Source: Candidatus Hydrogenedentota bacterium
GTDB taxonomy: Bacteria; Hydrogenedentota; Hydrogenedentia; Hydrogenedentales; JAJRTN01
Length of the DNA stretch: 64,000 nt
Direction of reading: 5' to 3'
Assembly (NCBI GenBank): GCA_024278275.1
Contig: JAJRTN010000045.1
Location: 14,560-78,559, forward strand
The translations under genes and the position numbers were made by a program. Under the pieces are notes generated by a model that had not been told where the DNA came from, ran no database searches, and saw only the letters and a list, made by a program, of their open reading frames with translations. This document shows positions 43,701 to 61,541 of the stretch, in pieces. Every line of letters begins with the position of its first letter. Position 1 is the stretch's first letter.

Positions 43701-43729
43701 AAAGGCAGATCGGGATGAGATTGAGGGGG

Positions 43730-46153
43730 TCAACGCCGGGCGCGACGTTGCTCCCGGGCGATATGGCGGAGATAAGCCATGTATTCGCTGACCGTGACAG
43801 GCGTGGCGGCATCCACTTTGCCCGTGCCGGCTTTGCCGACAGCCGCTTCGGCCCGCTTCGCCTTGATTTTGGCGGCATCCTGTTTAAGGGCCATCGCACC
43901 GGTCTCGGTCCCCGCGCGCAGCACCTTATTACCCGTTTCGACATCGACGCTCACACGAAACACCCCGCGGGCGCCACCCAAAAGCCGCAGGGTCCCGTCG
44001 TCGGTTTCGCGAAGAAACAGGATCAATTCCTGGCCATCCTTGAGTGGAGCGGGCGCCGTGCTTACCCGCATTTCAAGGATACCGTACTTGCCGCCAAGGT
44101 AACTGAACTGGGTAAGACCCTCTTTATTGAGACGGCCCTTGGCCGTGTCCGTCACGCGAAGCGACACGTCGGTGTAGATGCGATTCTGATCAGTTCGGTG
44201 CGTGCTGACGGCCTCGACCACCCCGGAGACAATATGGGTCGCCTGCTGCGTGAGTTCCTCGCTGCTGATGTAGGCAAACGCGGCATGGGCCGCGGGCATG
44301 ACGCCGCCTGATGCGAGAAGGAACAGCAAGGCGGCCGTGGTGGCCACGAAACGGCGGCGAAGCCCCAGCATCAGGAGCAGAAGCGTACTCAGCGTGGCGA
44401 GGATGGTCAAACTGATCATGGTGATATGCTCCAGCACCCAGGCAACCCCCTGAACGCAGGTCCTGGCCGCTTCGAAGGCCCAGGCATGGCGCAGCAGGAA
44501 ACGCGCCATGGCGGGCGACATGCGGTAATAGGTATCCGCCACCATCGCCCCGGCCGCGGAGCTCAGGAGATAGCGGTCGCGGAAACCACGCAGGTTCTTC
44601 GACACGATCATCCCAACCGTGCCGCCGGTGTCCGTCCCCGTGCCGCCCGTGCCCTGGGTGATAACATTCAGGGGGCACACGTCATTGGGGTCGCCAAACA
44701 TGGGGGCATCGGGACGGATAATGGATTCAAGGGCCTTTCCGCTCGTGTAACTCACCAGCTTATTCCTGGAAAAATCCCAATACACGGGGGTTCCCGCGTC
44801 ATGATTCTCCACGTCTATGATATTGCCGCTCTCGTGGAATGTGGAAGAGAAGAAATCGATGTTGTAGGGCCCGCCGGTTCCGGTGTGCAAGGTGTCATGA
44901 TCCGCGGGAGTCCGGCCCTCGGGTGCCTGCCGGTCCAACCCCAACTGGTTCAGCGGATTACAGGTGAAGGTATAGGTCGGCGTGTAATGCTGCTGGGGTA
45001 TGCTCGAACCGGGCCGCTCAAACTGTTTCCACAGCCCCTTCAGTTCAAAGTTGCCGTTCTGCTCGGGAGAGGTCTGCGTTTCGTAGAGTCCCGTCATGGT
45101 GCTGAACATGGCCACGCGCTGGGCCTGCCGGGGATCGTCCCGATCTTCAATATCGGCCCATGCCACAATGTGCGCGCCCAGCAGCGGTTCGCTGGGGAAG
45201 TTGGTCCGCGTTTCCGTCCGCGCACGCTGATTCACATCGAACATGTTCGCCCAACCGCCCTCGCGGGGATAGAGATAGGTGAGTCCGGAGATGTCGTCGG
45301 GCGCCAGATCCGTCCCCCCGTCCCTCCGCTCGCCATGCTGATCCTCCACGTCAAAGGCGATGGGATACATGGTAGGGGTGACCCCGACCCAGTCCGCCAC
45401 GCCCTGCGGATTGGTGAACCAGAAAACTTCGCTTTCCACGAGCCCCGTTATACTGGTGGGATCGTTGGGATCGGCCAGCGTGGGCCGAAGGTTGTTGTTC
45501 GGCGGATGACCCAAGCCAAGAAAGTGGCCAATTTCGTGAACCAGGGTGGCCTTAAGGTCGATCAGCGGCTCCAGGCTGCCCGGCAACGGACGGTGGGCCA
45601 GTGCATCGACAACAATATCGATATCGATGATTTCGCCGGCGGTAACCCAGATAGCTTGCCCGTTGTTACCAACCAGCTCGCCCTCGGCCGTGGCCTGCAA
45701 GATGATGGTAACGCCCAGGATCCCCCCCCCCACGGAGCCCGCTTCAGGGTCGCCGGCACCCGCCATGAAAACACTCGGCAGAAAATCGACCGTGGGAGAC
45801 ACCGGAATGGGGTCCGAGAAAACGCGGCCGTCCTGGAAGGCCGCATAGGAGGTGGGGACATCCTCCCAAACCTGGAAAGATTCGTTGACGACATCGATCT
45901 CGTCATCCGTGAACCCAAAATCACCGCCCTCGATGAAAATCTCGATGCCTTCATCAGGACCCACTTCGCCATCGTTGTTGGTGTCGAACTGGCCGAAATC
46001 CCACTGCTGCAAGCGCAGGATGCCAAAATCGTCGAAGAAACCCAGCGGGTAAAAGGCCCACGCCGAGGGCGCCAGCGCCAGCACCAAAACCACGGCAATA
46101 ACCCCCACTCCCGTTTGACGTATGGTCGCGCTCACGTGTTGCTTTCCTTTCAT
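43730..46153 (-). CDS. Secreted metzincin-type zinc metalloprotease (HExxHxxGxxH + Met-turn), composite with two TM helices and a ~200-aa C-terminal domain
   Basis: Signal peptide MKGKQHVSATIRQTGVGVIAVVLVLALAPSAWA (ATG 46153). HEIGHFLGLGH…TMYP. Later ISLTILATLSTLLLLMLGLRRRF and VATTAALLFLLASGGVMPAAHA hydrophobic segments, then a C-terminal domain of unknown function. Confidence 0.75.
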   Translation of the reverse strand: MKGKQHVSATIRQTGVGVIAVVLVLALAPSAWAFYPLGFFDDFGILRLQQWDFGQFDTNNDGEVGPDEGIEIFIEGGDFGFTDDEIDVVNESFQVWEDVPTSYAAFQDGRVFSDPIPVSPTVDFLPSVFMAGAGDPEAGSVGGGILGVTIILQATAEGELVGNNGQAIWVTAGEIIDIDIVVDALAHRPLPGSLEPLIDLKATLVHEIGHFLGLGHPPNNNLRPTLADPNDPTSITGLVESEVFWFTNPQGVADWVGVTPTMYPIAFDVEDQHGERRDGGTDLAPDDISGLTYLYPREGGWANMFDVNQRARTETRTNFPSEPLLGAHIVAWADIEDRDDPRQAQRVAMFSTMTGLYETQTSPEQNGNFELKGLWKQFERPGSSIPQQHYTPTYTFTCNPLNQLGLDRQAPEGRTPADHDTLHTGTGGPYNIDFFSSTFHESGNIIDVENHDAGTPVYWDFSRNKLVSYTSGKALESIIRPDAPMFGDPNDVCPLNVITQGTGGTGTDTGGTVGMIVSKNLRGFRDRYLLSSAAGAMVADTYYRMSPAMARFLLRHAWAFEAARTCVQGVAWVLEHITMISLTILATLSTLLLLMLGLRRRFVATTAALLFLLASGGVMPAAHAAFAYISSEELTQQATHIVSGVVEAVSTHRTDQNRIYTDVSLRVTDTAKGRLNKEGLTQFSYLGGKYGILEMRVSTAPAPLKDGQELILFLRETDDGTLRLLGGARGVFRVSVDVETGNKVLRAGTETGAMALKQDAAKIKAKRAEAAVGKAGTGKVDAATPVTVSEYMAYLRHIAREQRRARR

Positions 46154-46252: not shown

Positions 46253-49200
46253 TTACGCTTTGTTTCGCATTTTAGCGCGGCACGCGCCCAGCAGCAAGGC
46301 CAAAACCGCCATCAAGGCGATCAGATCGCCGCCGGCACCCGACTCCGCGGAACCCGCCGCACACCCGATTCCAGGAATGTCGGGCGAGTTGAGATACTCG
46401 AATCCGTTCACCAAAACATCTTCCTTGCCTTTGCTCTCGTCGCGCACGGTCACATCCAGGGGACCGGTCTTCGAGATACCACCGGCGGGGAAGCCCACAT
46501 TCACCCAACTGCCGTCGCCGGCAACATTGAGAACCTGCATTTCCGTATCACCAAAGTACACGGACAAGCTGCCCTCACCACCGAAGTTGGCACCATGTAC
46601 CACCACGGGGAAGACCGCCTGCGTACCCCGGTCCGGCTCTACGCGGATCACCTTCGGGCCATCCTGCGTGGAGCCGCCCACCAGGCTGAAGAGATCGGAA
46701 CGAACGGTTTCCTCCCGGGTCGCCGGATTCTTCACGATCAGAATGATCGGTTCCACGGGCGGCTCGTCGATGCGGGAACTGATGGTAACATCAATGGTGT
46801 TATCGGTCGCCGCAGTGATCACCACGTCGTAACCACTCAACAGCACCTCCGGGTCGGAGCCGAAGCCACGCCCACGGATAACGAACTCGAAGGGCTCGCC
46901 GGGCAACGTCTGGGCGGGCAAGGCCGTCTCGCTGACACCGTCAATCACCACGGAAACGGGCGAAAGCGGCTTCTTGCGCGCCTCGATAACTCCCGAACGC
47001 TGTTTCTTCGCGGAGTGACTGCGCACCCAGTTGATACCGCTGGTATCGGGCCGTTGCCTGGCTTCATTCCCATCCATGAAGTACCGCGTGGGCGGCTCCT
47101 TGAAGAAGCTGATAAAGCCCAAGCCGCGGCTGCCCCAGTTGAATTCCTCGAACTGCTTGTAGCCGTCCCGGTCACCACCGGACAGGCGCGCCCATGTGTC
47201 GGGATCGGGTTCCGACGGGGTGTTGGGACCCCAGGAAACAATACCGACACGGAAATCATCGTTCTCTTCCATGGTATCACTCGCGCGAATTACCAGGAAG
47301 AATTCCGCGCCGTGGTCCGGATCCGTGGTCCGTCGTCCAAAGCTGTCGGGAATCCACTGGCGGTGATTCGTCTGCTGCGCCATGGGCACGGGGACATCGT
47401 CCGTACCGGGGGTGGAGAAGACGAACTTGACCTGTGTCGACTCGCCGGAAACGCCGGAGAAGAAGGGGGCCACATCCAATTCGACCGGGAGGTCGATATC
47501 GGCATCGAAGATCCCGTTCCGGTTCCGCGGGTCGTTGTCATTATCACGGTAAAGCGCCAGACCGCTAATCCGCGGATCAATACTCAGGGGCAACAGGTCG
47601 GTGACGGGATTGAAGTTTCCGTTCGCACCCTGATCATAAAGCTCCACGATAAGCTGTTCGAGGAAGGTGGGATCGCGAACGATGCGCCACGGTCCCTCGG
47701 CCGGCGTGCCAAAGCGGAGTGAAAGCTGGTCCACCGTGTTCGACACGATCTCGAAGGCATGGTACTCCTTGTCCACGAGCCAATCTCCGGCGAACTCATC
47801 TTCCGCCCAAGCCGCGCCCACCGCGGTAAACCCGGCGGGAAGCCCCACGCCCGCGTCCCCCGTGGCCAGCGTGGCATCGGGGCGATTCGTGGATGCATCC
47901 ACCCCCATAACCGCCATGGCCGCGCCGCCAATGGTCAGCTTCTGCGTCGCATTGGTGAGGTTCAGGATGTGATGCGGCACATTGACTTCCATCATGTCAT
48001 GACCATAGAAGTCCTGTACCGGATCCTCATCGGGGCTGGTCTTGGTGTAGGCCGACGGACTGGTATTTATCTCGGGGAAGAACTGAATACCAGCCTGCCG
48101 TTCTTCGGGGCGTCGCGACGGCAAGGTGGCGGGCACCAGCACGCGGAATTGCTCGAAACGCCGGGCCTTGTCCGAGGTCTTCACCGTGATGAAGAGGTCG
48201 TCACCACCTTGGTCAACGGCCGGATCAAGGGCCTTTTCGTCCGGTCCGCCGGACTGGAGGATTTCCGCTTCTATCGTTGAAAGCTGCTTCTGAAGCGCCT
48301 CCGCCTCTTTCGTTCCGCCGAAGAAATTGGCGCCGACGCACCAACGCAGAATGAAATTAAAGGCGATACCGGTGGTCAGGTTGTCGTTGTGCGGCAACGG
48401 CCAAACCTCGCCCGGTTCGATTTCGACAACCCAGGCCAAGTCATTGCTATCCGCCACGCCATCGCCATTGAGGTCGTCCGGCGCGCCATCACCGTCCAGG
48501 TCGATGGGTTCAGGACTGGACGCCCACTGCAGATTGCGCAGGGGCACCACGTCATCAAAAGCATCGAAAACCGGCAGGGCATCCGCGTAATCGGCAATGG
48601 GGCCCGGCGTGAAGAACACACCGTTCTGATCCGCGTCCTCCCACAGGAGAATGCCCGAATCCAGATCGCTGCCGTCGGGGTCCAGGGGCGCCAGGTCATC
48701 CGGCGTGAAGTCGGGCCCCCAGAACGCCAGGGTAATCTTCGCCAGGCTGGGTTCCTGGCGGCCATTGACAATAATGTCATCCACGCCGGCGAGGTTGATA
48801 CCCAGCATGGCGGTCTGATTGCTGTCAACATCGATCTTCTGGGTCAGCAACCGGGCCTGTGTTTCCTCCAGGGGCCAGTCGCTCGCACGGGGATACTCAC
48901 CGGGGGCAAGCAGGGCGGGCCAGGTCGCATAAGCCGGCATGTTCGGCTGGAACGGGGGCGTCGCGTAGGCCGATGAACGATTGTCACCATCCAGCGAATT
49001 GAGGAATGGCACGGTCTCATAGGCGTACTGCCAGCTTTCATCATAGGTGAAGTTGATACCGTTTCCGATCCCCGCGTCTCCCGCACTCAGCGGAATGGAC
49101 AAACTGCCGAAGACGGACCAGTAGGTGACTCCCACACTGTGAAGATTGAGGAATTGGCTGCGAAGGAGACCGAAAGGATCCATCCAGCGGTCGAAATCCG

Positions 49201-52200
49201 TGGGGTCGTCCAACCCGTCGGCAAAGCCGTAACAGACCGAGCCGAAGGACGATCTCGAACCCCTTCCGAAGAAAATATCGGCTCTGAAGGCATACTCCGA
49301 ATCCGACTCATAGGTCAGGGTCAGATCGTGGACGTCCACCGTGCTGCGAAGCGGCTTGGCCGCGCTCGCGTTATGGGTCCGCTGGGGCCACCAAGGCTCC
49401 ACCGCCCCCCACTGCGGGTAGTCCTGCCAGGGCGCCCCGAAGAAATCGGGGTAGGCCAGGGAACCCTGCGCGGGGATCATACTGCTCAGATAGATTCCAC
49501 CGTCCTCGTGGCCAAAGCGGGCGTTGAAGCGCCGCGGCTCGATGAACACGCGGAAGTCCGCGCCGGCGGTAATGCCTCCCCCCGTGTTGGGTCCCATGGA
49601 GATATCCTGATAACCACTGTCGGTGCGGATAACCAGGAAGTAGTCAAATGTCCACGAACTGATGGGATCGGTGAAAACATTATCCGGCGTCGGCTCGAGG
49701 AAACCCGCCACGTTGGTTTCGTCCTCGGTCTCGGCGAGGGGCCGCCGCTCGCCGAAGATGAATTTCATTTTGAGTTTCCACCACGGATCACCACCGCCCG
49801 GAGGATTGGCGATATATTCCCAGCCCTGATCCTGGAAGAAGCTGCTCCCCATGCCAGGGAACATGGGCCGGTCGGTAAAGGTGATGCCGCCGCCGGGCAC
49901 CTGGGTGGGCGGATCGAAGATCCCGTTGTTGTTTGTATCGGACCACACCCAAACGCCGTTGAACGAGAAGTCATGTTCCAGGACCGGCTCGTACGTGGGA
50001 TACTCGTCGTAAGTGATCTCGTTCATACCGGTGATGGGATTGAAACCACCGTTGCCGGGCGGCCCCAGGGGATCCGCGCCGATGTCGGTCATGATCACGT
50101 TCACCTCGCGCAGCTCCGCCGCGGGACGATCCGCGAAAATAGTCCGGAAGCCCACATCGGGATCATATTGGTCGAAGTGGAGCGATTTGGTGGAGTGGAT
50201 GTTCAGGCCCAAAACGGGGAACCATGCTTCCATGGGCACCAACTGACGGATACGCAGGAACTCACCCGAGAAGCTGTCCAGCAACTGGTCGAAAGCGTTC
50301 CAGCGTGGCCGTGTAAACTCGGCCACCGGCGTGTACATGTAGTGCGGGGCCGTCCAGGTATTCACCATCCCCAGGCCATCCTGGATCAACGGCGTACCAC
50401 GCATCTCGAAAACGGAAAAGCTGGAAGCGTAAGCGTCGGTGTTCTCCAGGATTTCACCCGTCAGGAAATCCGGCGTGTAGCTGTCCAACGGTGCGCCGTC
50501 ATCACCCAGGGGGAAGTTGCCGTTAAGCGTCACCATTTGGGCGAAGAGGGCATCGGCGCTCATGGTAAGCTGACTGCGCCACGTGGCGGATGTCCGCACC
50601 GCGAGGACGTAAGACGCACCGTCCACCGTGTTGTCCACGTCCGGAGCGGCCGTGATATTCACCAGCGGCGTCCCCGTGTCATCGAGGAAATTGAGATCAT
50701 AGCTGATGAATCCGTCGTTCCCCGTGGCCACGCCGTAAGGCGCGCCGTCGTTGGCCCAACGGGCAATGAGCACGTCGAAGTCACTTAACACACCATTGTT
50801 GGCATCATCGCCACCGTCAAAGACTTCCCGGAACAGGCCGAATTCAAGCAGATCGCTCTGGTCCGGACCACCGGCGTTCAGGTAACCCAAATCCCTGCTG
50901 CTGTCATCATCACCATGAATGATGTACCGCAGGCGGGCCAGGTTGCGCGGCGCGGGCGCATCCACGCCATAGTTCATGGTGAAACGAAGCAGGGGCACCC
51001 AGTCACACAGGGGCACCAGCGCTTCACGGTCGCGAACGGCGGATTCGATGGTGAAGTTGGCCGGATCGGTCGCGATCTCGCCCTCGCCCTCACCCTCGGC
51101 GCCTCCCGCGAGAATCACCTGCACGTAGTCCTGGCGAACACGCTCGTTACGAACCAACTCGCCCGTACCGCTCTCGCGGAAGGTCACCTCCAAGGTCACC
51201 GTGTAGAAGCCGGGAGCGGTATAGAGGTGAGTCGGGTTGGCCTGGGAAGATTCGTCACCCGTGGACTGATCACCAAAGTCCCAGAAATAGGACTCGATGG
51301 CATGGTTCGGCCCGGGGTCGGTCTCGGCGCTGCTGAAACTGACCGCGGCGACACCGTTGGCCAGGGTCACCACCAGGGGTTGCGCGCTGAAATCGGCAAA
51401 GGGCGTCTCGATGATCTCGATATAATCATCCTTGAAAAGGGTGATCTCCGTCCCGAAGCGATCCACGATGGTCACGCTGACCGAATAGACCCCGGTCTGC
51501 CCGTAGACATGGGTGGGACTCTGCTCGAAACGGTCGTCGCCCGTGCTGCCATCGCCAAAGTCCCACGTCACGGTACTGATATTCTGGGGCTGGTTGCTGA
51601 GGATCTGGAAGGCCACCTCCTCGCCGAGGGCCTGCCGCACCGGCGTGGCCTCGAAATCGAAGGTCGGCGTTTCAAGCGCTGTAATCGGGGCGGTACGGGC
51701 AAACTTGTTCGGGTTGGTGCGCACCCAGTAACGGATGTTCGGATCCCGGTCGTCCTGGCTGTGATCCACTTCCTCGGCGGGCACGAAACGCTGTGCCTCG
51801 TAACTGTAGGTCCAGTTATAGACCGGGGGCGGATCCTGGAAGAAAGAGATCAGACCGATCCCGCGCGCGCCCCAGGGGAATTCGGAGAAGATATCGAACT
51901 CGTCTTCGCGCTGCTGCCGAAGATCGCCCGGCTCCAGGGTGACCGAGAAATTATCCGGGTCGGGTTCGGTCGGCGTGTTGGGTCCCCACGAGACGATGGC
52001 CGCGGCGAAATCATCACCTTGGCTCATCAACAACGAGGGACGTACCACGACGAAGAAATCGGGGCCGTAGGCATCCTCGGAGATGGTCCGCCCGAAGGTC
52101 TGGGGAATCACCTGGCGGAGCCTCGGCTGGGTCTCGTAGGGCACTACCGGTTCGGGACGGCCCACGATGTTGTCGGTGCCGGGCGAGGAGAAGACCATCT

Positions 52201-55200
52201 TGACCTGGTACTGGGGCTCCCCGGCGCGCCCGATGCGGATGGGCGGATCGTCGAGCCGCACGGGCAAGTCGATATACTCCACCACCGCGCCCGTATCGGG
52301 ATCCAGCACGGGCGGATCAAAGACACCGTTGGTGTTCAGGGGATGGAGATCGTTGTCACGATAGAGCGACACACCGCTCCGGAAACCCCGAACCGGGTCC
52401 TCGTAGTTCAGTTCGAGGAAGTCCACCGGCAGGCGGAACTGGCCGTCCCGGCCCACGTCATAGAATTCGACAATAACCTGCTCCAGGAAGGTCGGGTCCT
52501 TCACCACATACCACTCGCTGCCCGCGCGGGGCGCGCCGGCGAGGAGGGTCAACGTATTACCGGCAACACCCGTGATCTGGAAGGCCTCCACGGCATCCAC
52601 CGCGTTGAGATCATAGGCCGCTTGCTTGCCCGTGTCCCCCGTCACCTGGTTCAGGCCGACAAGCCACAACCCCACCCAACCGTCGGGCGTGCCGTGCGGA
52701 TCAGCCGGATCGGTAATACCGGTCTCGTAATCGGTGATCTCGAACGTGTTGACCCCGGCGATGGTCCCCACCCCGGAGCCCCGGGCAATCAGGTTGTCCG
52801 GACGATTGTTGGACAGGTCAAGGCCCAACACGGCCACGGGCGGACCGCCCGGGGCCACGGCCGGCGTACCGGCGGGAGTGACCTCGAGGGAACCTGTCAG
52901 ATCCAGAATGCGGGTCGGAACATTGGCCTGCGCCATGTCATGGCTGTAGAAGTCCTGCACCGCGCCCTCGTCGGGATTGCTCTTCTGGTAACTATTCACC
53001 ACGGTGTAGGCAAACGGGGCCAGTTGAATGCCGCCATGACCGCTTACCACGGGGTTGGGCGGCACACTGCGCTCCGGCAGGCGTGCCGGGACAACACAAC
53101 GGAACTGCTCGAACGCGGCGATATCACCGGAGGTGCGCACCACGACGAAAAGATCGTCGCCTTCCGAACCGCCGGCCGCCAACGCCTTGGTGTTCGTGAC
53201 GGAATCCGGCACGGAAGCCAGGTCATACAGGCTGGGCTGGGCCGTCGAATAGAACGGACTGGCCAGCGCCTTCTCGGCGGGGCTCGCCCCGGCGATGGGC
53301 GGCGCGGCACCCGGCGGCGTCGATATGGGCGCGCCGGTCCGGCGGTCGGACTGGGGCAGGTTCCACGTTCCACGGGGCTGCAAGCGCAACACCCACGCCA
53401 AGTCGCTCAGGCCGTCCCAGCGGGCGGCCTCCGCGCCGGTAATCTCCCCGTTCGCAATCGCGGTTTGCACGAGGGCATCAATCTCGGAAGGCGTCAGCCC
53501 CGCCACCTCGTGGAGGAAGACCACGCCGTCACCGCTCATGTCGTCGGCAACATCGTCCCCGTCCAGATCGATGGCCTCGGGGCTTTGCGCCCACTGAAGC
53601 GTACCCGGCTCCAACGGTACAATCGCGTCGGTAAGGGCGGGTACCGGCGAGAAATCAAAGAACACCGGCGGGTTATACACGCCGCTGGCATTGGAATCCT
53701 CGTAAAGCAACACACCGGAAGTCACCTGCGTGCCATTGGGATCGAGGGCCGCTAAATCACGCCGGTCGAAATCCGGTCCCCAGAAGGCGATGGTGATGCT
53801 GTCGAGGGACACGCTGTTGTTCTGGTTCACGATGAAGTCATCCGTGCCCGCCAGGTTGATACCCAGCATGGCCATGGGCTCGGACTCGGCTTCAACATGC
53901 TGTTTCAGCAGACGCGCGGCACGGGCGCCCTGGTCCTCGGGCTTCACCGGGAAGTTCGGCTCATGCAGCGGGAGCGCACCACCGATGCGCGGGCTCAACC
54001 CCGCCTTCCAGTCAGTGGCATGGGGATAGGTGCCGCGCGGCTTGGCCACGTCGGTCACGGCCCAACGACCGCGGGAAATGGCGAAATCCTCGCCTTCCGG
54101 CACACCAAAGGGCCAATCCGGCAGGTTCAGCACGCCGTCGGGGTAGACGGCCAGCGTGGCCGGACGGTCCGGGAAGCGCGCGAACTTGTCCATGTAGGCA
54201 TTGTGCCCGCGCATCAGGAAGAGGGTGTTCCCATTGTTCCCGGTGATCTTGTAGCGGTTGCCCGCGCGATCCACGAGCCACTTGCCCGCGAGGGTATCCA
54301 CCCCCGAAAAAGCGCCGTCCTCGAGAACAAAGGCATACACGTCATCCGAATAGGTGGATTCGGAATCGGGCGAGGTCGGGATGGCATAGGGTTCGTTGGT
54401 CACGCCTTCGTCGTAGAGGTAACAGTAACTCTCCTCGCCCCAGGCCAGGGCAATCGTGTTCAGCGGCCAGGACGTATCAAAGGCCAGGTAGTCCCGCGTA
54501 TCACGGAAGCGCGGCAGGGTCGGCTGTTCGGCGGGTTCGGGGTAGAAACTCGACCGGGGGTAGGTGGCCTGGCCGTCGATGGCGTCCGCGGTCAGGTCAA
54601 AGGGCACCGTCTCGTAAGCGTACTGGATCGCTGTAAGCGCGTCGTCGCCCGTCAGGTTCTCGGAGACATCCCGTTCCACGCCCACGGAAGCCGGGGGCGT
54701 AAAGCGGCTTTGCAGCATACCGTATTTGATCAACGTCGGCGGAACGTCCGGACCGAGGGTGTCGAGAATCGGCGGATCAACCCACAGCGAAAAGAGCGTT
54801 CGCCCAACAGACAAATCGGTATTGGGCACGGGAGTCGGCGGATTCTGGGCGATATTGATATAGGTTTCCTTGGCAAACACGTTGTTCGTGCTGTAGGTCA
54901 GCACCAAGTCGTGAATCTCGATCCCCCCCTGCTGTATCTTCGCGTTGTCCCGGTTCAGCGAACGCTCGGTCCACCACGGCTGGGGCGCCATGAAGACGGG
55001 CACGCAATTGTCCGGCGTGCTGCAATCCATGGTGATGCTGGTTTCGTCGCGGGCAGGGTTATCCTGTCCAATCACCCCCACGGGCGCAGGAATGTCGGAA
55101 CTGAAAAGGATGCCGCCGTCGTTATGGCCGCCATGAAGCGGGTTCCACCGGCGCGGCTCGATGAAGGCCCGGAAATCCGCGCCCACGGGCAGCCCCGTAC

Positions 55201-57538
55201 CATCCCCCTGCAACCCGGAAATATCCCGGAAACCGCTGTCGGGACGAAGCGTCACGAAATAGTCGGCCTGGGGCTGGTTCCCACGCAAGCCGGGGGGAAA
55301 GAAATCCGGGAGCGATTCCAGGCCGCCCGTGCAGCCCTGGCCGGACTGCAGATGACCACCGCCCGAGAAACGAAGACGGATCTTCCACCACGGGTCGCCG
55401 CCACCCGGCGGGAAGGGAATGTATTCCCACTCGAAAAAGGTGCCATCCACGAAATCCGATCCCGTACCCTGATCCAATATGCCGCCCGGACGCATGGGGA
55501 AATCGTTGAAATCGACACCCACGCCCGTGGGACTGGGCGGGTTGAAAATGCCGTTACCGGGACAATTAGACGGATTGCCCGCGGCGTCCGGGCAGTTTGA
55601 ACCACCGTCATTGTCATAGAACATCCAGGCACCGTTAAAGGAGTAATCGTTTCCGACGGCATGTCCCTGTCCCCCGTCCGCGGCCGTGGTCATCTTCTCG
55701 AGGCCCTCGGTCGGCTCAAAGCCCCCGTTACCCGGCACCGCGAAAGGATCGCCGCCTACGTCGGTAACGATGAGGTTCACTTCCGTCGGCCCCGTGTAAC
55801 AATCGCCGTGGGCGTTAATGGCGATCACGGGCACCCACGTCTCGACGGAGAAAATGCGCCGAATGTCCAGGAACTCCCCGGTCAGCGCCTGCACCATGGT
55901 GTTCGAAATATCCCAGCGCGGGCGAAAATGCTCCCGCCGGGGAGTGTACATGCGGATCGGCCAATTCCACGTGTTGCGGTCAAAGCCCGGACGATAACTG
56001 AAATCGCCCGTGTTGTTCCCGGATACATCCCATAGGCCGAAATTGGAGGTATAGCCCACATCCTCGGAAAGGGGAAAATCAGGATAGTCGTCGATGGGAG
56101 CCAAGTCGTCCGGGTTGATGGGAAAGTTGCCGACGGTCACGGGATCGTTCGCTTCGGGCCCCTCCCCGCCCAAGTCCGCGGGCGGATCGGGGGCGAAGGG
56201 CAGCATGGTGGCGCCAAGCACGGTGTAGGAAATGCCGGTGCCCGAGGTCCAACTGGAGGAGGTCCGAAAGGCCAGTATGTACGAATTATTGGGGGCGGGC
56301 CCCGCGGTCATCCAGCTTCGCGTCCGGGTCGGCACCCCGGTGACCTCGTCAATGTGGGTCCGGTAAAACGGCAGTTGGGGATTGTTCAGGTCCAGCGGAA
56401 CCGCCGCGTTGAAGGTGGGGTCGTGGGGGTTGAAAACAAAGGACAGGTTGTAGTCCAAGTCCCCGTAACTGAACGCACCCGTCGCGTCGGGCGTATCGTA
56501 GGGGTAGCCATGACCGTTGAAAACGACGACCGGCACCCGTGAATCAAAAAAACTTGTCGGAAGGCGAATATCGAGCAGGTCATCCGGCTCACCCTGGGGA
56601 CCGCTGTTCCGGAAGATGGCGAACTCCAGGATATCGGATTCCTGGGGCCCCACCAAACTGGATGAATTGCCACGGACGACATGGTCGCCGTCGATCCTGA
56701 AGTGCAGGTTGGCCAAGGCCCGGGGAGCCGGGGGGTTGTCGGGGTTGTAGGTCATGTCAAAGCGAAAAAGGGGCGTCCAGTCATTGAAGGGCAGCAGGGC
56801 CGCACCGTCCCGCGCGCCAATAAGGTCGGTAACGGCGAAGGTCGCCGGCTCCGGGGCCTCGCCTTCCCCCTCTCCCTCGGCCGCTTCGGTGACCGTAAGC
56901 GTGCCTACGCTGACCGGGCCGTCGGGCGGGCACACGAGCTCCACGTCCGGGTTCTCGGCGTGAACAATCAGCACCTGCATGGCCACATCGTAGTCACCCA
57001 CGATATCCAGGGAGAGATCCAGGCCAACGAGATCCTGGGGAAGAATGGTCAGGGTCGCGTCGTCAAAGAGAACCGTCTCGTACACCGTGGCGTTACCGTT
57101 GGGATCGGTGATGGTCCACTCGATGCCGGCCACGTTGGCGGGAATGCCCGCGGGAATGTCCTGCACATCGCCATACAGGGTGACGTTAAAGACGGTAGGC
57201 CCCGTGGTGTCCGGGTCGGCGGCGAAACCCAGTTGATACATATCGCAGGTAATCACCTGGCTCAGCAGGGCGGACTGAACCATGAGCCCCGCCAGGGCGC
57301 TGCCGGGGGCGGCGGCCAGTTGCAGGGGCGCTTCCGCGGCCGGAGGCGCCTCGGGCAGCAGTTCCAACATGGCCTCCGTCACGGACGCCGTGCGTGTCTC
57401 TGGGGCGGGCGCCCCATCCTGTCCCCCCCGTTCCGCGGCAATGGTCCGCGCTTGTTGCCCGGGGAGAACCCCGATCATCCCGATCGTCACGATGGCCGCC
57501 AGGGCCACGCTCACGAAGGCACCGTGTTTCATGCTCAC
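46253..57538 (-). CDS. Giant (3,761 aa) secreted repetitive protein: signal peptide, two ~1,600-aa diverged tandem duplications, 2 PKD domains, 2 IPT/TIG-like domains, C-terminal sorting-signal-like tail
   Basis: N-terminal signal peptide. AEGEGEGE-initiated units share colinear motifs: PPGGGDPWWK(I/L)…, AMLGINLAG(T/V)DD…AFWGPDF, IDLDGD…DD…GDGV, FEQFR…VPA(R/T)LP, PTFLEQ(V/L)IVE(F/L)YD, GIVSWGPNTP(T/S)EPDPD. PKD signatures WDFGDGS…PTHVYG…GVYSVSV and WDFGDQS…PTHLYT…GFYTVTL. C-terminus …GIGCAAGSAESGAGGDLIALMAVLALLLGACRAKMRNKA. Confidence 0.8.
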   Translation of the reverse strand: MSMKHGAFVSVALAAIVTIGMIGVLPGQQARTIAAERGGQDGAPAPETRTASVTEAMLELLPEAPPAAEAPLQLAAAPGSALAGLMVQSALLSQVITCDMYQLGFAADPDTTGPTVFNVTLYGDVQDIPAGIPANVAGIEWTITDPNGNATVYETVLFDDATLTILPQDLVGLDLSLDIVGDYDVAMQVLIVHAENPDVELVCPPDGPVSVGTLTVTEAAEGEGEGEAPEPATFAVTDLIGARDGAALLPFNDWTPLFRFDMTYNPDNPPAPRALANLHFRIDGDHVVRGNSSSLVGPQESDILEFAIFRNSGPQGEPDDLLDIRLPTSFFDSRVPVVVFNGHGYPYDTPDATGAFSYGDLDYNLSFVFNPHDPTFNAAVPLDLNNPQLPFYRTHIDEVTGVPTRTRSWMTAGPAPNNSYILAFRTSSSWTSGTGISYTVLGATMLPFAPDPPADLGGEGPEANDPVTVGNFPINPDDLAPIDDYPDFPLSEDVGYTSNFGLWDVSGNNTGDFSYRPGFDRNTWNWPIRMYTPRREHFRPRWDISNTMVQALTGEFLDIRRIFSVETWVPVIAINAHGDCYTGPTEVNLIVTDVGGDPFAVPGNGGFEPTEGLEKMTTAADGGQGHAVGNDYSFNGAWMFYDNDGGSNCPDAAGNPSNCPGNGIFNPPSPTGVGVDFNDFPMRPGGILDQGTGSDFVDGTFFEWEYIPFPPGGGDPWWKIRLRFSGGGHLQSGQGCTGGLESLPDFFPPGLRGNQPQADYFVTLRPDSGFRDISGLQGDGTGLPVGADFRAFIEPRRWNPLHGGHNDGGILFSSDIPAPVGVIGQDNPARDETSITMDCSTPDNCVPVFMAPQPWWTERSLNRDNAKIQQGGIEIHDLVLTYSTNNVFAKETYINIAQNPPTPVPNTDLSVGRTLFSLWVDPPILDTLGPDVPPTLIKYGMLQSRFTPPASVGVERDVSENLTGDDALTAIQYAYETVPFDLTADAIDGQATYPRSSFYPEPAEQPTLPRFRDTRDYLAFDTSWPLNTIALAWGEESYCYLYDEGVTNEPYAIPTSPDSESTYSDDVYAFVLEDGAFSGVDTLAGKWLVDRAGNRYKITGNNGNTLFLMRGHNAYMDKFARFPDRPATLAVYPDGVLNLPDWPFGVPEGEDFAISRGRWAVTDVAKPRGTYPHATDWKAGLSPRIGGALPLHEPNFPVKPEDQGARAARLLKQHVEAESEPMAMLGINLAGTDDFIVNQNNSVSLDSITIAFWGPDFDRRDLAALDPNGTQVTSGVLLYEDSNASGVYNPPVFFDFSPVPALTDAIVPLEPGTLQWAQSPEAIDLDGDDVADDMSGDGVVFLHEVAGLTPSEIDALVQTAIANGEITGAEAARWDGLSDLAWVLRLQPRGTWNLPQSDRRTGAPISTPPGAAPPIAGASPAEKALASPFYSTAQPSLYDLASVPDSVTNTKALAAGGSEGDDLFVVVRTSGDIAAFEQFRCVVPARLPERSVPPNPVVSGHGGIQLAPFAYTVVNSYQKSNPDEGAVQDFYSHDMAQANVPTRILDLTGSLEVTPAGTPAVAPGGPPVAVLGLDLSNNRPDNLIARGSGVGTIAGVNTFEITDYETGITDPADPHGTPDGWVGLWLVGLNQVTGDTGKQAAYDLNAVDAVEAFQITGVAGNTLTLLAGAPRAGSEWYVVKDPTFLEQVIVEFYDVGRDGQFRLPVDFLELNYEDPVRGFRSGVSLYRDNDLHPLNTNGVFDPPVLDPDTGAVVEYIDLPVRLDDPPIRIGRAGEPQYQVKMVFSSPGTDNIVGRPEPVVPYETQPRLRQVIPQTFGRTISEDAYGPDFFVVVRPSLLMSQGDDFAAAIVSWGPNTPTEPDPDNFSVTLEPGDLRQQREDEFDIFSEFPWGARGIGLISFFQDPPPVYNWTYSYEAQRFVPAEEVDHSQDDRDPNIRYWVRTNPNKFARTAPITALETPTFDFEATPVRQALGEEVAFQILSNQPQNISTVTWDFGDGSTGDDRFEQSPTHVYGQTGVYSVSVTIVDRFGTEITLFKDDYIEIIETPFADFSAQPLVVTLANGVAAVSFSSAETDPGPNHAIESYFWDFGDQSTGDESSQANPTHLYTAPGFYTVTLEVTFRESGTGELVRNERVRQDYVQVILAGGAEGEGEGEIATDPANFTIESAVRDREALVPLCDWVPLLRFTMNYGVDAPAPRNLARLRYIIHGDDDSSRDLGYLNAGGPDQSDLLEFGLFREVFDGGDDANNGVLSDFDVLIARWANDGAPYGVATGNDGFISYDLNFLDDTGTPLVNITAAPDVDNTVDGASYVLAVRTSATWRSQLTMSADALFAQMVTLNGNFPLGDDGAPLDSYTPDFLTGEILENTDAYASSFSVFEMRGTPLIQDGLGMVNTWTAPHYMYTPVAEFTRPRWNAFDQLLDSFSGEFLRIRQLVPMEAWFPVLGLNIHSTKSLHFDQYDPDVGFRTIFADRPAAELREVNVIMTDIGADPLGPPGNGGFNPITGMNEITYDEYPTYEPVLEHDFSFNGVWVWSDTNNNGIFDPPTQVPGGGITFTDRPMFPGMGSSFFQDQGWEYIANPPGGGDPWWKLKMKFIFGERRPLAETEDETNVAGFLEPTPDNVFTDPISSWTFDYFLVIRTDSGYQDISMGPNTGGGITAGADFRVFIEPRRFNARFGHEDGGIYLSSMIPAQGSLAYPDFFGAPWQDYPQWGAVEPWWPQRTHNASAAKPLRSTVDVHDLTLTYESDSEYAFRADIFFGRGSRSSFGSVCYGFADGLDDPTDFDRWMDPFGLLRSQFLNLHSVGVTYWSVFGSLSIPLSAGDAGIGNGINFTYDESWQYAYETVPFLNSLDGDNRSSAYATPPFQPNMPAYATWPALLAPGEYPRASDWPLEETQARLLTQKIDVDSNQTAMLGINLAGVDDIIVNGRQEPSLAKITLAFWGPDFTPDDLAPLDPDGSDLDSGILLWEDADQNGVFFTPGPIADYADALPVFDAFDDVVPLRNLQWASSPEPIDLDGDGAPDDLNGDGVADSNDLAWVVEIEPGEVWPLPHNDNLTTGIAFNFILRWCVGANFFGGTKEAEALQKQLSTIEAEILQSGGPDEKALDPAVDQGGDDLFITVKTSDKARRFEQFRVLVPATLPSRRPEERQAGIQFFPEINTSPSAYTKTSPDEDPVQDFYGHDMMEVNVPHHILNLTNATQKLTIGGAAMAVMGVDASTNRPDATLATGDAGVGLPAGFTAVGAAWAEDEFAGDWLVDKEYHAFEIVSNTVDQLSLRFGTPAEGPWRIVRDPTFLEQLIVELYDQGANGNFNPVTDLLPLSIDPRISGLALYRDNDNDPRNRNGIFDADIDLPVELDVAPFFSGVSGESTQVKFVFSTPGTDDVPVPMAQQTNHRQWIPDSFGRRTTDPDHGAEFFLVIRASDTMEENDDFRVGIVSWGPNTPSEPDPDTWARLSGGDRDGYKQFEEFNWGSRGLGFISFFKEPPTRYFMDGNEARQRPDTSGINWVRSHSAKKQRSGVIEARKKPLSPVSVVIDGVSETALPAQTLPGEPFEFVIRGRGFGSDPEVLLSGYDVVITAATDNTIDVTISSRIDEPPVEPIILIVKNPATREETVRSDLFSLVGGSTQDGPKVIRVEPDRGTQAVFPVVVHGANFGGEGSLSVYFGDTEMQVLNVAGDGSWVNVGFPAGGISKTGPLDVTVRDESKGKEDVLVNGFEYLNSPDIPGIGCAAGSAESGAGGDLIALMAVLALLLGACRAKMRNKA

Positions 57539-57822: not shown

Positions 57823-57986
57823 TAGAGAAAGCCGTTGCAATCCCCGTAAATTCATAAGGTTAAGTGGAAATCACCCACTACGCAGTATATAGTTTTCACC
57901 TTTTTTGTAAATTATCTACCTGCACCCCGCTTGGGCACCATCCGGTTCAACCATCCCGTTCGTCCCGCCTCCTGGAAATCCACCCT

Positions 57987-59834
57987 TCACGAGTCCACAA
58001 CCCCGAGCACTATCTCGCGCAACGAGTCTATCAGATCCTGGGGTAGCTGGAAAAGCCCGTCGCGACCCTTTGCGCGGGCATAGCGCCGGGCAAGGTCGTC
58101 TTCGGTGAGCGACCCCACTTCGACCGGACCCAGCACGGTCGATTCCGCGGGGTTGGCGGGGTTGCGAACCAGCACCTCGAAACGAAAGACCGGGTCATCC
58201 AAGCCGTACACCGCCGGATCATCCTTCCATTCGAGCAGGGCGCCACGGGCGCGAAGCGGACTCATGAGTTCGAGCAGTTTCGTGGCGTCGCTCTGGTTCG
58301 CCAGCACCTTGCCTTCCGGCTTCCGCACCAGCCACCGTCCGTGGACCTTCTCGAAAACGTACTGAACGCCATCAAGGGTAAAGTCCATGCGCTCCGCCAT
58401 TTCACGGGTAAAAGCCAGCAGGGTTTTAGAACGGAAATCGGCGGCTTTCGCGAAGGCGCGTTGGGCCATGTTTTTATGAACCAGCGTCACGCCGCCGCCA
58501 TCCTGTAGGGCGGCGTAGTAGTCGGGGTTGTCCGGCGCGGGCGCCATGAGAATAACCCTCGGCGTCTCTTCCCCCTCGGTAAAGACGTTGATGGTGATTT
58601 GCGGCGCGTCCAGGTTGTAGTCCCCGGGCTTGGCATCATCGAGAAAATGGGAAATGGTGATGGTCTTCAGGGAGGCGATGAAAGAAGATATGGCCAATTG
58701 GTCCACGTCCTCGATGGCCGGTTCCACGACCTGCCAGCCCCGGTCGGAATCCAGTTCCAGGATGAACGCATCATCGCCGTTCCGGTATTCGATGCGGTGA
58801 ATGGGATTCTCCTGGGCCGTGAGCACATGCTTTTCACGCCAACTGTCGGGCTTACCGGGAAGCAGGGTCAGGAGGTGGGCGGGTGTAACGAAAAGGTCGG
58901 GCCGGTCGTCGCGCATGGTATAGATGCCGCCCTTCTCACTCAACACATCGATGTTGCCGTAAAAGATGGTCTGCGGTTCGCCCCTGTCATCGTCGGTGAC
59001 GGTGATCATGAAGCGTACGGGCGCCAGGCCATAATCCGCCAGGTCCTCCGGTTCGTCGATAAAGTTTGAGCCCATGGTGTTCTGAAGCTCGACGGCCAGT
59101 TCATTGAGCACCTTCTGATTGGCCGGCATATCCCTGGGCTCCAGAATGCGCCAGGGCTTGCCCGCCGCCTCGCGCTCGACCACGACCCGCTGCCCGAGCG
59201 TGCCGATTTCGGGCGCCTTGCCCTGGAAAGCCTCGCTGCCTTCCCCCGTGTAGATGGGCGAAAACTCGATACGCAGAAGGCTCGCCTTGTGGTTGTCCAT
59301 GAGAAAGCGCATCCGCAAGTCGTCCAACGACCGGTTCAGTTCGAAATACTGCGTGCTGTCCACCAGGATCACCGGGCCGCCATCCACTTGGGCGTAACGG
59401 AAACGTTCGGTAGGTTCCGTATCACCGAAAATAACTTCCACCGGCGCATGCCCCGACAAATCGGCCGCCACGCGCAGCGCGGGTTCAGCCAAACCAAAAC
59501 GGGCCAGGCCTTCGGGCGCCTCGGCGATGGTCCGGTGGTTCTTTAATTGGCTGAGGTGGTGAGCGACGCGGTTCCACATGAGGTCGAGCGGCGGAATACC
59601 CGGGCGGGGCTCCTGGATGGTCCAGGTGCCGTCTTCCTTGCGCATGGCGGTCACAGCGGGCCGGCCCACCTGCTCGACCGTGAGACGCTGCACCGTGTCC
59701 GGGTCAAAATCGTAGACGCGCATGGCCTCCTGCCTGCGCACCTCTTCGCGCTTGCCGGCCTGGATAAACCAGGCATAGCCGGCGCAAAGAACCAGCAACA
59801 CGGCCATCAGCATCAGCGTCGTTCTCGGCTTCAT
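57987..59834 (-). CDS. DUF4340-like periplasmic protein (fourth gene of GldG-type ABC operon)
   Basis: Start at MKPRTTLMLMAVLLVLCAGYAWF (signal/TM). Positioned immediately after the GldG-like gene (stop/start 3 nt apart), which is the architecture typical of DUF4340 partners. Confidence 0.65.
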   Translation of the reverse strand: MKPRTTLMLMAVLLVLCAGYAWFIQAGKREEVRRQEAMRVYDFDPDTVQRLTVEQVGRPAVTAMRKEDGTWTIQEPRPGIPPLDLMWNRVAHHLSQLKNHRTIAEAPEGLARFGLAEPALRVAADLSGHAPVEVIFGDTEPTERFRYAQVDGGPVILVDSTQYFELNRSLDDLRMRFLMDNHKASLLRIEFSPIYTGEGSEAFQGKAPEIGTLGQRVVVEREAAGKPWRILEPRDMPANQKVLNELAVELQNTMGSNFIDEPEDLADYGLAPVRFMITVTDDDRGEPQTIFYGNIDVLSEKGGIYTMRDDRPDLFVTPAHLLTLLPGKPDSWREKHVLTAQENPIHRIEYRNGDDAFILELDSDRGWQVVEPAIEDVDQLAISSFIASLKTITISHFLDDAKPGDYNLDAPQITINVFTEGEETPRVILMAPAPDNPDYYAALQDGGGVTLVHKNMAQRAFAKAADFRSKTLLAFTREMAERMDFTLDGVQYVFEKVHGRWLVRKPEGKVLANQSDATKLLELMSPLRARGALLEWKDDPAVYGLDDPVFRFEVLVRNPANPAESTVLGPVEVGSLTEDDLARRYARAKGRDGLFQLPQDLIDSLREIVLGVVDS

Positions 59835-61537: not shown

Positions 61538-61541
61538 CGCC

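Follow-up and report, generated by a model that had tools for sequence, protein, structure and literature searches.

A giant, internally duplicated protein of Hydrogenedentota is encoded beside a type II secretion cluster and ends in a tail resembling a surface-sorting signal

What is the giant protein encoded in this Hydrogenedentota genome for, and how might so large a product leave the cell? The phylum Hydrogenedentota is widespread and seems to have no cultured members, and to our knowledge next to nothing has been described of its cell surface. Our literature search found nothing on the giant protein, on the partner gene beside it or on a type II secretion system (T2SS) of Hydrogenedentota. 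We analysed a stretch of 64,000 nucleotides (the window; features in Table 1) together with related loci. The reading we favour, and rate as somewhat more probable than its negation, is that the giant protein is a calcium-binding, beta-sandwich, adhesin-like cargo of the adjoining T2SS, kept at the surface through a MYXO-CTERM-like signal.

Codon-position GC in the giant open reading frame is gene-like (GC3 0.77), and the GTG start is supported by the homologs, which open with MS[IL]K.G and a hydrophobic stretch (compare MSMKHGAF in the giant protein). Classical signal peptides are found at homolog N-termini, for example ...GGQAWA/AP in P0004. The N-terminal add-ons differ from homolog to homolog (DUF11/CLIPPER, Kelch, Calx-beta, PKD), and Cys is rare outside the tail (15 in 3,761 residues). 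Intact double-unit open reading frames of ~3,400-4,400 aa are present in at least 24 other genomes, which makes a frameshift or assembly artefact unlikely; P0067 is a 3,712-aa relative. An earlier note, made from the letters alone, had proposed a single giant secreted protein with a signal peptide and had argued against an artefact, and both proposals are supported.

Table 1. Features of the window; positions count from its first letter, and residue numbers (aa) refer to the giant protein.
Feature	Position	Strand	Remark
Upstream ABC-type module	57987..63504	-	
ABC-module ATPase	62365-63504	-	
Probable ABC-2 permease	61542-62633	-	by analogy with L002
GldG-like ABC_transp_aux	59831-61537	-	
DUF4340 gene	57987-60008	-	
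Promoter-like site TTTACA-16-TATACT	57884..57911	-	in 449-bp gap upstream of giant gene; consensus match only
Giant gene, 3,761 aa	46253..57538	-	GTG start; stop codon 46253-46255
N-terminal signal peptide or anchor region, aa 1 to ~36, MSMKHGAFVSVALAAIVTIGMIGVL...	57431..57538	-	predicted from sequence
N-terminal segment preceding unit A, aa 37-219	56882..57430	-	variable among homologs
Unit A, aa 220-1958	51665..56881	-	first copy; extra insert ~aa 1011-1169
PKD domain 1, aa 1964-2029	51452..51649	-	Pfam match
PKD domain 2, aa 2064-2125	51164..51349	-	Pfam match
Unit B, aa 2147-3524	46967..51100	-	second copy; three or more diverged Ca-loop beta-sandwich modules
IPT/TIG-fold domain 1, aa 3527-3620	46679..46960	-	weak match to 'choice-of-anchor Z' repeat
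IPT/TIG-fold domain 2, aa 3627-3717	46388..46660	-	
Tripartite tail, aa 3718-3761	46256..46387	-	lipobox-like G-I-G-Cys3726, spacer, Asp3738, helix, RAKMRNKA
Partner gene, ~807 aa from ATG	43730..46153	-	directly downstream of giant gene
Terminator-like hairpin	43678..43701	-	10-bp stem, 8 GC pairs, T-run; after partner stop, before gspC
T2SS cluster	28026..43487	-	starts two genes downstream of giant gene
gspC	42381-43487	-	T2SSC match
gspD	39805-42336	-	Secretin + N0 match
gspE	38057-39802	-	T2SSE match
gspF	36821-38044	-	T2SSF match
gspG	36142-36567	-	T2SSG match
Three pseudopilin genes	33784-36076	-	N_methyl matches
gspK	32639-33787	-	T2SSK match
gspL	31078-32541	-	T2SSL/PilM match
gspM	30573-31088	-	T2SSM 23.7 bits, under Pfam cutoff 27.8
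ExeA-like AAA + peptidoglycan-binding gene	28026-30218	-	

Most of the protein consists of two homologous units, each opening with AEGEGEGE (aa 220 and aa 2147). The duplication was detected after the protein was split, a whole-protein self BLAST having returned the self match only. Residues 228-1011 of unit A align with 2156-2870 of unit B at 32% identity (E 4e-87), and residues 1169-1958 with 2880-3524 at 38% (E 1.5e-117). These alignments confirm the ancient intragenic duplication of the earlier note and its divergence; its figure of 40-60% identity does not stand, the measured range being 32-38%, with 47% reached only over conserved columns of the C-half. The copies are unequal in length (A ~1,740 aa, B ~1,380 aa). 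Unit A clusters with the first units of other double-unit proteins at ~60-62% identity, the double-unit form is kept in at least 24 species genomes, and the tandem duplication is a single old event. The two PKD domains that the note had placed between the units were recovered by Pfam (PKD_4 2.9e-25, PKD 5.6e-17), with PF00801 and PF18911 above gathering score (88.6 and 61.9 bits, two stretches each). For its two IPT-like domains after unit B the support is a match to the IPT fold, generic in kind. In homologs the IPT-like repeats match the 'choice-of-anchor Z' repeat (NF058597, CoaZ_rpt_PGGG) above cutoff, whereas the giant protein scores 15.6 against a cutoff of 30.

The unit founds a family of its own, which we saw in Hydrogenedentota-type MAGs and nowhere else; Pfam, NCBIfam and PDB sequences offer no match to it (for unit B, 0 PDB matches at E<=1). 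The claim that no characterised family explains the unit therefore stands, but the unit is not the opaque block it had seemed, as it resolves into at least three beta-sandwich modules. The all-beta body carries repeated loops of the DxNxNGxFD and DLDGDG types, and homologous modules recur within unit B (hhalign 77-97%), the N-half and C-half of which were predicted at pLDDT 77 and 81. The top fold matches are to Gram-positive adhesin and pilin domains of the beta-sandwich type and to Bacteroidota GH33 sialidases, probably in their N-terminal region. The sialidase matches, found with Foldseek against the PDB, have low TM-scores of 0.15-0.22, so that one subdomain at most matches; we suspect this to be the N-terminal beta-sandwich of the sialidase. 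A GH33 class for the unit was set aside at these scores and is kept as a weak lead.

Giant calcium-binding repeat adhesins of Gram-negative bacteria are surface-tethered proteins of several thousand residues, with all-beta modular bodies, Ca-type Asp/Asn loops and variable ligand-binding add-ons. The LapA/MpIBP-type RTX adhesins among them rely on type I secretion, with the RTX signal at the C-terminus and a retention module at the N-terminus. The giant protein is like them in size, in its all-beta modular body, in its Ca-type loops, in its variable add-on domains and in its proposed tethering to the cell. It differs in having an N-terminal Sec signal, a Cys/helix tail and an adjoining T2SS, and Pfam, NCBIfam and PDB sequence searches found no sequence similarity to RTX adhesins.

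Could the unit instead be a secreted or surface carbohydrate-active enzyme, or a glycan-binding protein for foraging on polysaccharide or EPS, with the tail as its tether? Many W, D, E and R residues are very strongly conserved in the unit, which would also fit an enzyme and counts against an adhesin-like cargo. Against this stand the low TM-scores, the lack of any Pfam or NCBIfam CAZyme domain in the giant protein, and the modular beta-sandwich repeats, which one would sooner expect in binding or stalk domains. We regard such a function as unlikely, if still worth serious consideration. It is compatible with the export route favoured here and differs from it only in what the body does.

In the tail of the giant protein an 11-residue G/A/S spacer follows Cys3726, and the hydrophobic helix (3738-3753), also predicted by the structure model, precedes RAKMRNKA. 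Among 30 aligned tails Cys and Asp are invariant, each tail continuing with a helix and an R/K cluster. The spacer between the two is 11-15 residues long (mode 12), position -1 is G, A or S in 26 tails, and position -2 is F, I, L or V in 28. This tail is carried by ~44 of the 71 family proteins. The remainder mostly have the curated CFI-box-CTERM domain (NF041770), which ends 24 of the 71 (P0025 3e-26, P0037 3e-23) and which class-2 homologs reach at 81-91 bits (cutoff 40). In the CFI-box-type relatives Cys falls in the same alignment column as in the window-type tail (C851, at least 90% conserved in both classes), and tail class switches among lineages. The giant protein itself lacks the ~55-residue helical segment of CFI-box-CTERM and has no NF041770 match; in the literature we found no paper using that term.

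A tail profile was searched against 1.84 billion representatives, and unrelated proteins were found to end in the same tail type: P0060 and P0065 (DUF7467), P0066, P0070 (with a sub-cutoff choice-of-anchor D match), P0071 and P0059. At least one of these is from Hydrogenedentota, as the P0060 cluster contains NCBI proteins from Candidatus Hydrogenedentes. Within 20-kb neighbourhoods the tail HMM matched only family members. The tripartite sorting-signal architecture that had been read from the window alone is supported by this conservation and recurrence.

The assignment to a known class fared less well. For neither the window tail nor the tails of 10 relatives does any NCBIfam CTERM model reach its cutoff, including the GlyGly-CTERM, MYXO-CTERM and PEP-CTERM models that the earlier note had named. 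The nearest is MYXO-CTERM of Myxococcota (TIGR03901), with no match at E<=10 for the window tail and at most 10.6 bits against a cutoff of 20 for relatives. Both signals have an invariant Cys in a small-residue context, a transmembrane helix and a basic cluster, and both sit on diverse surface proteins. They differ in phylum, in the longer Hydrogenedentota spacer (11-15 aa) and in the invariant Asp that opens the Hydrogenedentota helix; in the window tail Cys stands 12 residues from the helix, farther than is known to us for MYXO-CTERM. IMG labels P0066, which has GCGCGP, as MYXO-CTERM, but it gives no TIGR03901 match at E<=1. Cys-containing tripartite signals of this kind are cleaved by CPBP myxosortases (MrtX), and the T2SS is required for surface delivery (Haft 2023, bioRxiv 10.1101/2023.06.07.544157; Guo, Haft & Wall 2025, PMC11980579). 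That link is experimental in Myxococcus, whereas for the Hydrogenedentota tail it comes from gene order.

GlyGly-CTERM proteins, processed by rhombosortase, offer a second comparison; VesB of Vibrio cholerae is a T2SS-dependent, surface-retained member. They share a C-terminal tripartite signal, and the window tail has GG before its helix (SGAGGD). Other family members do not keep this GG, as the residue ahead of Asp varies among G, T, S and A; the tails have no match to TIGR03501, and the window has no rhomboid gene. The window tail also lacks a PEP motif or a match to PEP-CTERM (TIGR02595), and there is no exosortase gene in the window. The tail looks like a surface-sorting signal not yet catalogued.

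A search for the enzyme that would read it, advised in the same note, covered the window and ~1.7 Mb of related loci and returned neither a rhombosortase nor an exosortase or CPBP gene. Pfam found no sorting protease in the 64-kb window, nor did the genes around four unrelated proteins with the tail include one. The ~1.7 Mb were scanned with a CPBP motif regex, crude and insensitive, and neither there nor in the window was a myxosortase-like gene (PF02517) found. The genes for sorting enzymes often lie at other places in the genome.

The partner gene was absent from the earlier reading. Its product runs from a signal peptide through a metzincin-like domain, a middle domain, a CFI-box-like segment and a second hydrophobic segment to a ~190-aa C-terminal domain. 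It has the metzincin zinc site HEIGHFLGLGH and the Met-turn TPTMYP, scores 20.2 against a cutoff of 24 for Pfam Peptidase_M10, and gave 0 PDB sequence matches at E<=1. The CFI-box-like segment, with Cys (DVCPLNV) and TM-RRR, matches NF041770 internally at 41.8 bits (cutoff 40; aa 550-598 of the 837-aa ORF). Of the 57 partner ORFs extracted, some few of which are truncated, only 25 retain HExxHxxGxxH. The partner was considered as a general sorting protease and rejected on this count and on its own Cys-containing anchor module. Of 61 loci, 57 have a partner homolog immediately 3' of the family gene, and in P0018 partner and family protein lie within one ORF.

Beyond the partner lies a T2SS cluster, which had also escaped the earlier reading: the window holds gspC-D-E-F-G, three pseudopilin genes and gspK-L, with gspM below cutoff. 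In most genomes sampled from the phylum the giant gene and partner stand directly before a complete T2SS cluster. Of 53 loci with a partner, 40 have gspC/gspD next after it. Independent gene calls in L001, L002 and L004, at 41-50% identity and with both tail classes, confirm the gene order, which holds in relatives only 36-50% identical. The T2SS link, first drawn by analogy, is now backed by this order, conserved across the phylum. No terminator-like site was found in the gap between giant gene and partner; the hairpin between this pair and gspC leaves room for a transcript separate from the T2SS genes. The upstream ABC module is present in 20 of 24 double-unit loci vs only 2 of 28 single-unit loci.

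On these grounds we infer that the protein is secreted by the adjoining T2SS, cleaved and lipidated, and retained at the surface, and that it serves in adhesion or glycan binding. Sec would export the precursor by its N-terminal signal peptide, and the body, with two ~1,400-1,700-aa Ca-loop beta-sandwich units and the PKD and IPT domains, would fold in the periplasm while the precursor stays in the inner membrane by virtue of its C-terminal helix and basic cluster. A putative sorting enzyme would read the Cys...Asp-helix signature, remove the helix and leave the invariant Cys, or a position close to it, with a lipid or similar anchor. Substrates of both MYXO-CTERM/myxosortase and GlyGly-CTERM/rhombosortase are processed by helix cleavage and anchoring. 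The T2SS two genes downstream would then carry the protein over the outer membrane, to act as a tethered adhesin-like or glycan-binding surface protein, and the partner, presumably co-transcribed and with its related CFI-box-like anchor, would probably take the same route. Several findings count against a T2SS cargo: 13 of the 53 partner-bearing loci have no gspC/D downstream and four loci lack both, no CTERM model reaches its cutoff, no candidate sorting protease was found in the window or the ~1.7 Mb of related loci, the hairpin may part the pair from the gsp transcript, and Cys lies far from the helix for a MYXO-CTERM-like signal. At ~400 kDa the protein is also far above the size of any T2SS substrate known to us.

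Giant protein and partner might instead be structural accessories of the secretion machine, for example a periplasm-spanning or secretin-associated scaffold anchored in the inner membrane by an uncleaved C-terminal helix. The tail is also borne by unrelated proteins whose gene surroundings are unrelated too, which argues for a general sorting tag; the N-terminal add-ons vary in the manner of adhesins, tail class switches between lineages, the gsp genes are missing downstream in those 13 loci, and the IPT match is no more specific than its fold. We consider such a role distinctly improbable. More speculative, and in our estimate a long shot, is that giant protein, partner, T2SS and, in the double-unit clade, the GldA/F/G-like ABC module with DUF4340 form one dedicated apparatus for attachment or surface motility, the giant protein being a ~400-kDa secretin-threaded fibre served by a new Cys-Asp sorting pathway with its own sortase. 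That the tail is a plain, unprocessed membrane anchor (stop-transfer helix and positive-inside charges), T2SS adjacency being an artefact of co-regulation or inheritance, would suit the sub-cutoff CTERM scores and the fruitless enzyme searches in the window and ~1.7 Mb of related loci, but we find it very improbable, since invariant Cys and Asp at a fixed 11-15 residue spacing in a lipobox-like context would be superfluous for an anchor, the tail recurs as a cassette on unrelated proteins, and gene order is kept among relatives as diverged as those above.

The surface-retained T2SS cargo remains our preferred reading. A two-gene module before the T2SS in most sampled genomes points to the main job of that T2SS, and the module is a concrete candidate for the attachment of Hydrogenedentota to particles or polymers. 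The tail brings Cys-containing C-terminal sorting signals to another phylum and, through the common Cys position, links the short Cys...Asp tail with CFI-box-CTERM; this link gives a handle on the missing sorting enzyme via phylogenetic profiling. If secretion is as proposed, a ~400-kDa substrate would stretch ideas of T2SS capacity. Were the single dedicated apparatus to prove real, it would comprise by far the largest T2SS-handled protein that we know of, together with a new pair of sorting signal and enzyme.

The giant ORF is real. Its 3,761 codons are uninterrupted by stops, as the earlier note had described, and its codon-position GC content is gene-like (GC1 0.63, GC2 0.46, GC3 0.77). 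The N-terminus, MSMKHGAFVSVALAAIVTIGMIGVL, aligns with the starts of homologous proteins, and classical signal peptides are present in several of these. The two PKD domains that had been anticipated are the sole Pfam matches on the protein, and an NCBIfam scan of the whole protein and of its last 49 residues returned nothing meaningful.

A tandem duplication within the protein is certain from its sequence. The motif AEGEGEGE occurs at residues 220 and 2147, and split BLASTP aligned residues 228-1011 of unit A with 2156-2870 of unit B (32% identity, E 4e-87) and residues 1169-1958 with 2880-3524 (38% identity, E 1.5e-117). The duplication itself thus stands, while the 40-60% identity first attributed to it does not; unit A also contains extra insertions. 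When 99 unit copies from 71 family proteins were clustered, the first units of all double-unit proteins formed one group, and all second units clustered together along with the single-unit proteins. Unit A of the window is 59-62% identical to other first units vs only 47% to its own unit B. We take this grouping and the higher first-to-first identity to mean one ancient duplication, kept intact since. An assembly artefact, which the earlier note had discounted, is ruled out because intact double-unit ORFs of ~3,400-4,400 aa recur at no fewer than 24 loci with the Cys tail and 5 with the CFI-box tail (both described below).

A search with unit B returned 55 proteins (E down to 0, identity 36-51%), most of them single-unit proteins of 1,650-2,400 aa with IPT/TIG, PKD, or other add-on domains. 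All named relatives come from Candidatus Hydrogenedentes/Hydrogenedentota MAGs, save one Nitrospiraceae-labelled fragment (P0053). One genome per GTDB species was scanned, and a relative is encoded at 169 loci; the 80 best of these lie in Hydrogenedentota MAGs or differently labelled MAGs (mostly 'uncultured Nitrospirales'), and most of these 80 share a common synteny. The record titles of loci L012, L014, L015, L024, L026, L032, and others read 'uncultured Nitrospirales/Nitrospiraceae bacterium' or 'FCB group bacterium', and several of these oddly labelled contigs (e.g. L015 and L024) have the full synteny. Such titles on Hydrogenedentota-type contigs are probably placeholder or mistaken taxonomy.

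Conservation across the family is very strong, with dozens of invariant W/P/G/D/E/R positions and the motifs FPPGGGDPWWK, EPRRFNP, EPWWPQRT, AFWGPDF, DLDGDGxxDDLNGDGV, DPTFLEQVIVEFYD, and IVSWGPNTPTEPDPD. It had been claimed that no characterised family explains the unit, and this held: a PDB sequence search found no relative, and the Pfam matches are PKD only. AlphaFold models that used the family alignment as input are confident and almost wholly beta, both for the N-half (pLDDT 77, pTM 0.81) and for the C-half with IPT domains and tail (pLDDT 81, pTM 0.74). Foldseek aligned Bacteroidota GH33 sialidases over ~230 columns (E 1e-5), with TM-scores of just 0.15-0.22; that the body is a carbohydrate-active enzyme or lectin is unlikely. 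Profile-profile comparison (hhalign) revealed a homologous ~140-residue module common to unit B segments 200-560, 735-1010, and 1010-1384 (probability 77-97%, E down to 4e-11), each copy with a DxNxNGxFD-type loop and a terminal 'hhhVRTS...F.h.h' strand pair. Given these internal repeats and the lack of a characterised family, the best description of the unit is a series of diverged beta-sandwich modules with Ca loops, an adhesin- or stalk-like architecture.

Features of the window, in order of position
Feature	Position	Strand	Remarks
279-aa ORF	3554-4393	-	No Pfam match; below GC3 0.68 filter
413-aa protein	6221-7462	-	Only a C-terminal MshEN domain, no ATPase domain
URO-D-like paralog	8569-9627	+	
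PilZ fused to YkuD L,D-transpeptidase	9697-11202	+	
332-aa ORF	25938-26936	-	No Pfam match; gene-like codon GC pattern
URO-D-like paralog	26953-28023	-	Just past T2SS cluster, beside glycosyltransferase and acyltransferase genes
ExeA/GspA-like gene	28026-30218	-	AAA_22 and peptidoglycan-binding domain; end of T2SS cluster
T2SS cluster	28026-43487	-	From the partner: gspC (PDZ), gspD, gspE, gspF, gspG, three pseudopilin genes, gspK, gspL, gspM, ExeA-like gene
Partner gene (837-aa ORF)	43730-46153 (from ATG)	-	Directly downstream of giant gene
Giant ORF	46253-57538	-	GTG start, 3,761 codons, no internal stop
GldA/GldF/GldG-like ABC module and DUF4340	57987-63504	-	Directly upstream of giant gene
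272-aa ORF	61534-62352	-	No Pfam match
363-aa ORF	61542-62633	-	GC3 0.81

The giant gene is followed by its partner and a T2SS cluster, within which no GspB-like or prepilin-peptidase gene was recognised. Independent gene calls repeat the order of family protein, ~800-aa protein, and GspC-D-E-F-G in homolog contigs of both tail classes. Among 82 non-redundant loci, a partner homolog lies immediately downstream of the family gene in 57 of the 61 with enough flanking sequence, and gspC/gspD come after the partner in 40/53. At the locus of homolog P0018, a T2SS cluster lies ~3 kb off in convergent orientation. Downstream of four family genes (P0045/L007, L064, L075, and L084), both the partner and the gsp genes are missing; two of the four, L064 (genome DIWA01) and L075 (genome CAZPMT01), are second copies, each in a genome with another copy that is linked to a T2SS. 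L007 and L064 have a Cys-rich tail of another kind (DPCGPMQCCPP...), and the L084 C-terminus consists of dockerin-like DxDGD repeats. A role for the giant protein as a structural accessory of the secretion machine is improbable; the IPT lipoproteins that form a belt around GspD in Deinococcus (PMC10828601) offer an interesting parallel, but one of generic fold.

In the window, the 449 bp preceding the giant gene contain a promoter-like site, the gap between giant gene and partner has no terminator-like site, and a strong hairpin (10-bp stem, then a T-run) follows the partner stop. By this arrangement, giant gene and partner seem to form a transcription unit of two genes, with the gsp operon directly adjoining it. 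The upstream module encodes an ABC ATPase, a probable ABC-2 permease, a GldG-like auxiliary protein (ABC_transp_aux), and a DUF4340 protein. A link with the giant protein is possible. DUF4340/GldG modules lie upstream in 20/24 double-unit loci vs only 2/28 single-unit loci. The 272-aa ORF here is probably in the wrong frame; the overlapping 363-aa ORF is the positional counterpart of the ABC2_membrane gene at locus L002. Elsewhere in the window, the MshEN and PilZ-YkuD proteins are possible c-di-GMP effectors.

The partner is most likely ~807 aa. From the N-terminus, a signal peptide precedes a metzincin-type site (HEIGHFLGLGH, with the Met-turn TPTMYP) and a middle domain; next comes a CFI-box-like segment, in which the Cys of DVCPLNV is followed by RGFRDRYLL...YYRMSP, a transmembrane helix, and RRR. 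A second hydrophobic segment and a conserved ~190-aa C-terminal domain ending ...YMAYLRHI complete the protein. Proteolysis is rejected as a universal role because HExxHxxGxxH is retained in only 25 of the 57 partner ORFs extracted. In P0018 (L006 10001-17140, on a 2.17-Mb contig), a single 2,379-aa ORF runs stop-free from a family protein ending in a CFI-box tail into a partner that has a signal peptide of its own and reads HSxxH instead of HExxH. The ORF may be a true fusion or the product of a lost stop codon, and it is consistent with family protein and partner being functionally close.

Family C-termini fall into two classes, that of the window (~44/71) and the curated CFI-box-CTERM (24/71; 81-91 bits vs a cutoff of 40). 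The tripartite tail proposed earlier was borne out in the window class, where both Cys and Asp are invariant (30/30 aligned tails). The Cys sits in a lipobox-like context (G/A/S at -1 in 26/30, F/I/L/V at -2 in 28/30), with Pro at +2 in 15/30, and is followed by a G/A/S/D/P spacer of 11-15 residues (mode 12), the Asp, ~17 hydrophobic residues, and an R/K cluster. The CFI-box Cys occupies the same alignment column, which is at least 90% conserved over both classes. The homologs' IPT-like repeats match NCBIfam 'choice-of-anchor Z' above cutoff, a name that signals proteins swapping C-terminal anchors. The proposed membership in a known sorting-signal class failed: no curated NCBIfam CTERM model reached cutoff on the window tail or 10 relatives, and the best scores (MYXO-CTERM 10.6 vs 20, PID-CTERM 13.5 vs 26) are owed largely to the helix-Arg part.

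An exhaustive search of 1.84 billion representatives with a profile of the tail gave 22 matches at E<=1e-3, comprising family members and unrelated proteins (P0059, P0060, P0065, P0066, P0069, P0070, and P0071) with the tail at the extreme C-terminus. Of these unrelated carriers, P0060 and P0065 contain DUF7467, P0065 also has GEGEGEGE linkers, and P0069 and P0070 match choice-of-anchor D below cutoff; the P0060 cluster includes NCBI proteins from Candidatus Hydrogenedentes, and IMG labels P0066 a MYXO-CTERM protein. From its presence on unrelated proteins, we infer that the tail is modular, a cassette shared by different proteins, not a peculiarity of a single one. The 536-aa gene call of P0059 (L091 8900-10510) carries the Cys...Asp-helix-RRR tail twice, internally and terminally, each copy preceded by a surface Ig-like region; the next gene is also Bact_surface_Ig-like, and the call looks like two merged tail-bearing genes or a tandem pair. 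No sorting protease turned up in the window, beside four other tail-bearing genes, or in 1.7 Mb scanned with a crude motif. That the tail is a plain uncleaved anchor is very unlikely.

Myxosortases of the CPBP family process the tripartite signals that contain a Cys (MYXO-, JDVT-, Synerg-, and CGP-CTERM), and surface localisation of MYXO-CTERM and GlyGly-CTERM proteins depends on a T2SS (10.1101/2023.06.07.544157; PMC11980579). Reasoning from these systems and from the conserved gene order, we favor with moderate confidence a five-step route of surface display, all of which we infer beyond the T2SS adjacency and the conserved tail. The giant protein would be exported by Sec and fold in the periplasm, its precursor anchored in the inner membrane via the C-terminal helix. 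A putative sorting enzyme would then cleave and anchor it at the Cys...Asp signature, and the T2SS would carry it through the outer membrane. At the surface it would be retained in an adhesin-like or glycan-binding role, and the partner would take the same route.

The giant protein would work like MYXO-CTERM and GlyGly-CTERM proteins, yet it falls below cutoff for both HMMs, and its tail is related to but distinct from CFI-box-CTERM. Its body resembles giant Ca-binding adhesins in build but differs in sequence and secretion route. We found nothing in the published literature on the family, the partner, the term CFI-box-CTERM, or Hydrogenedentota T2SS biology. What appears new is the combination of an uncatalogued Cys-Asp C-terminal signal with an uncharacterised, phylum-specific module of giant cargo and partner tied to the T2SS.
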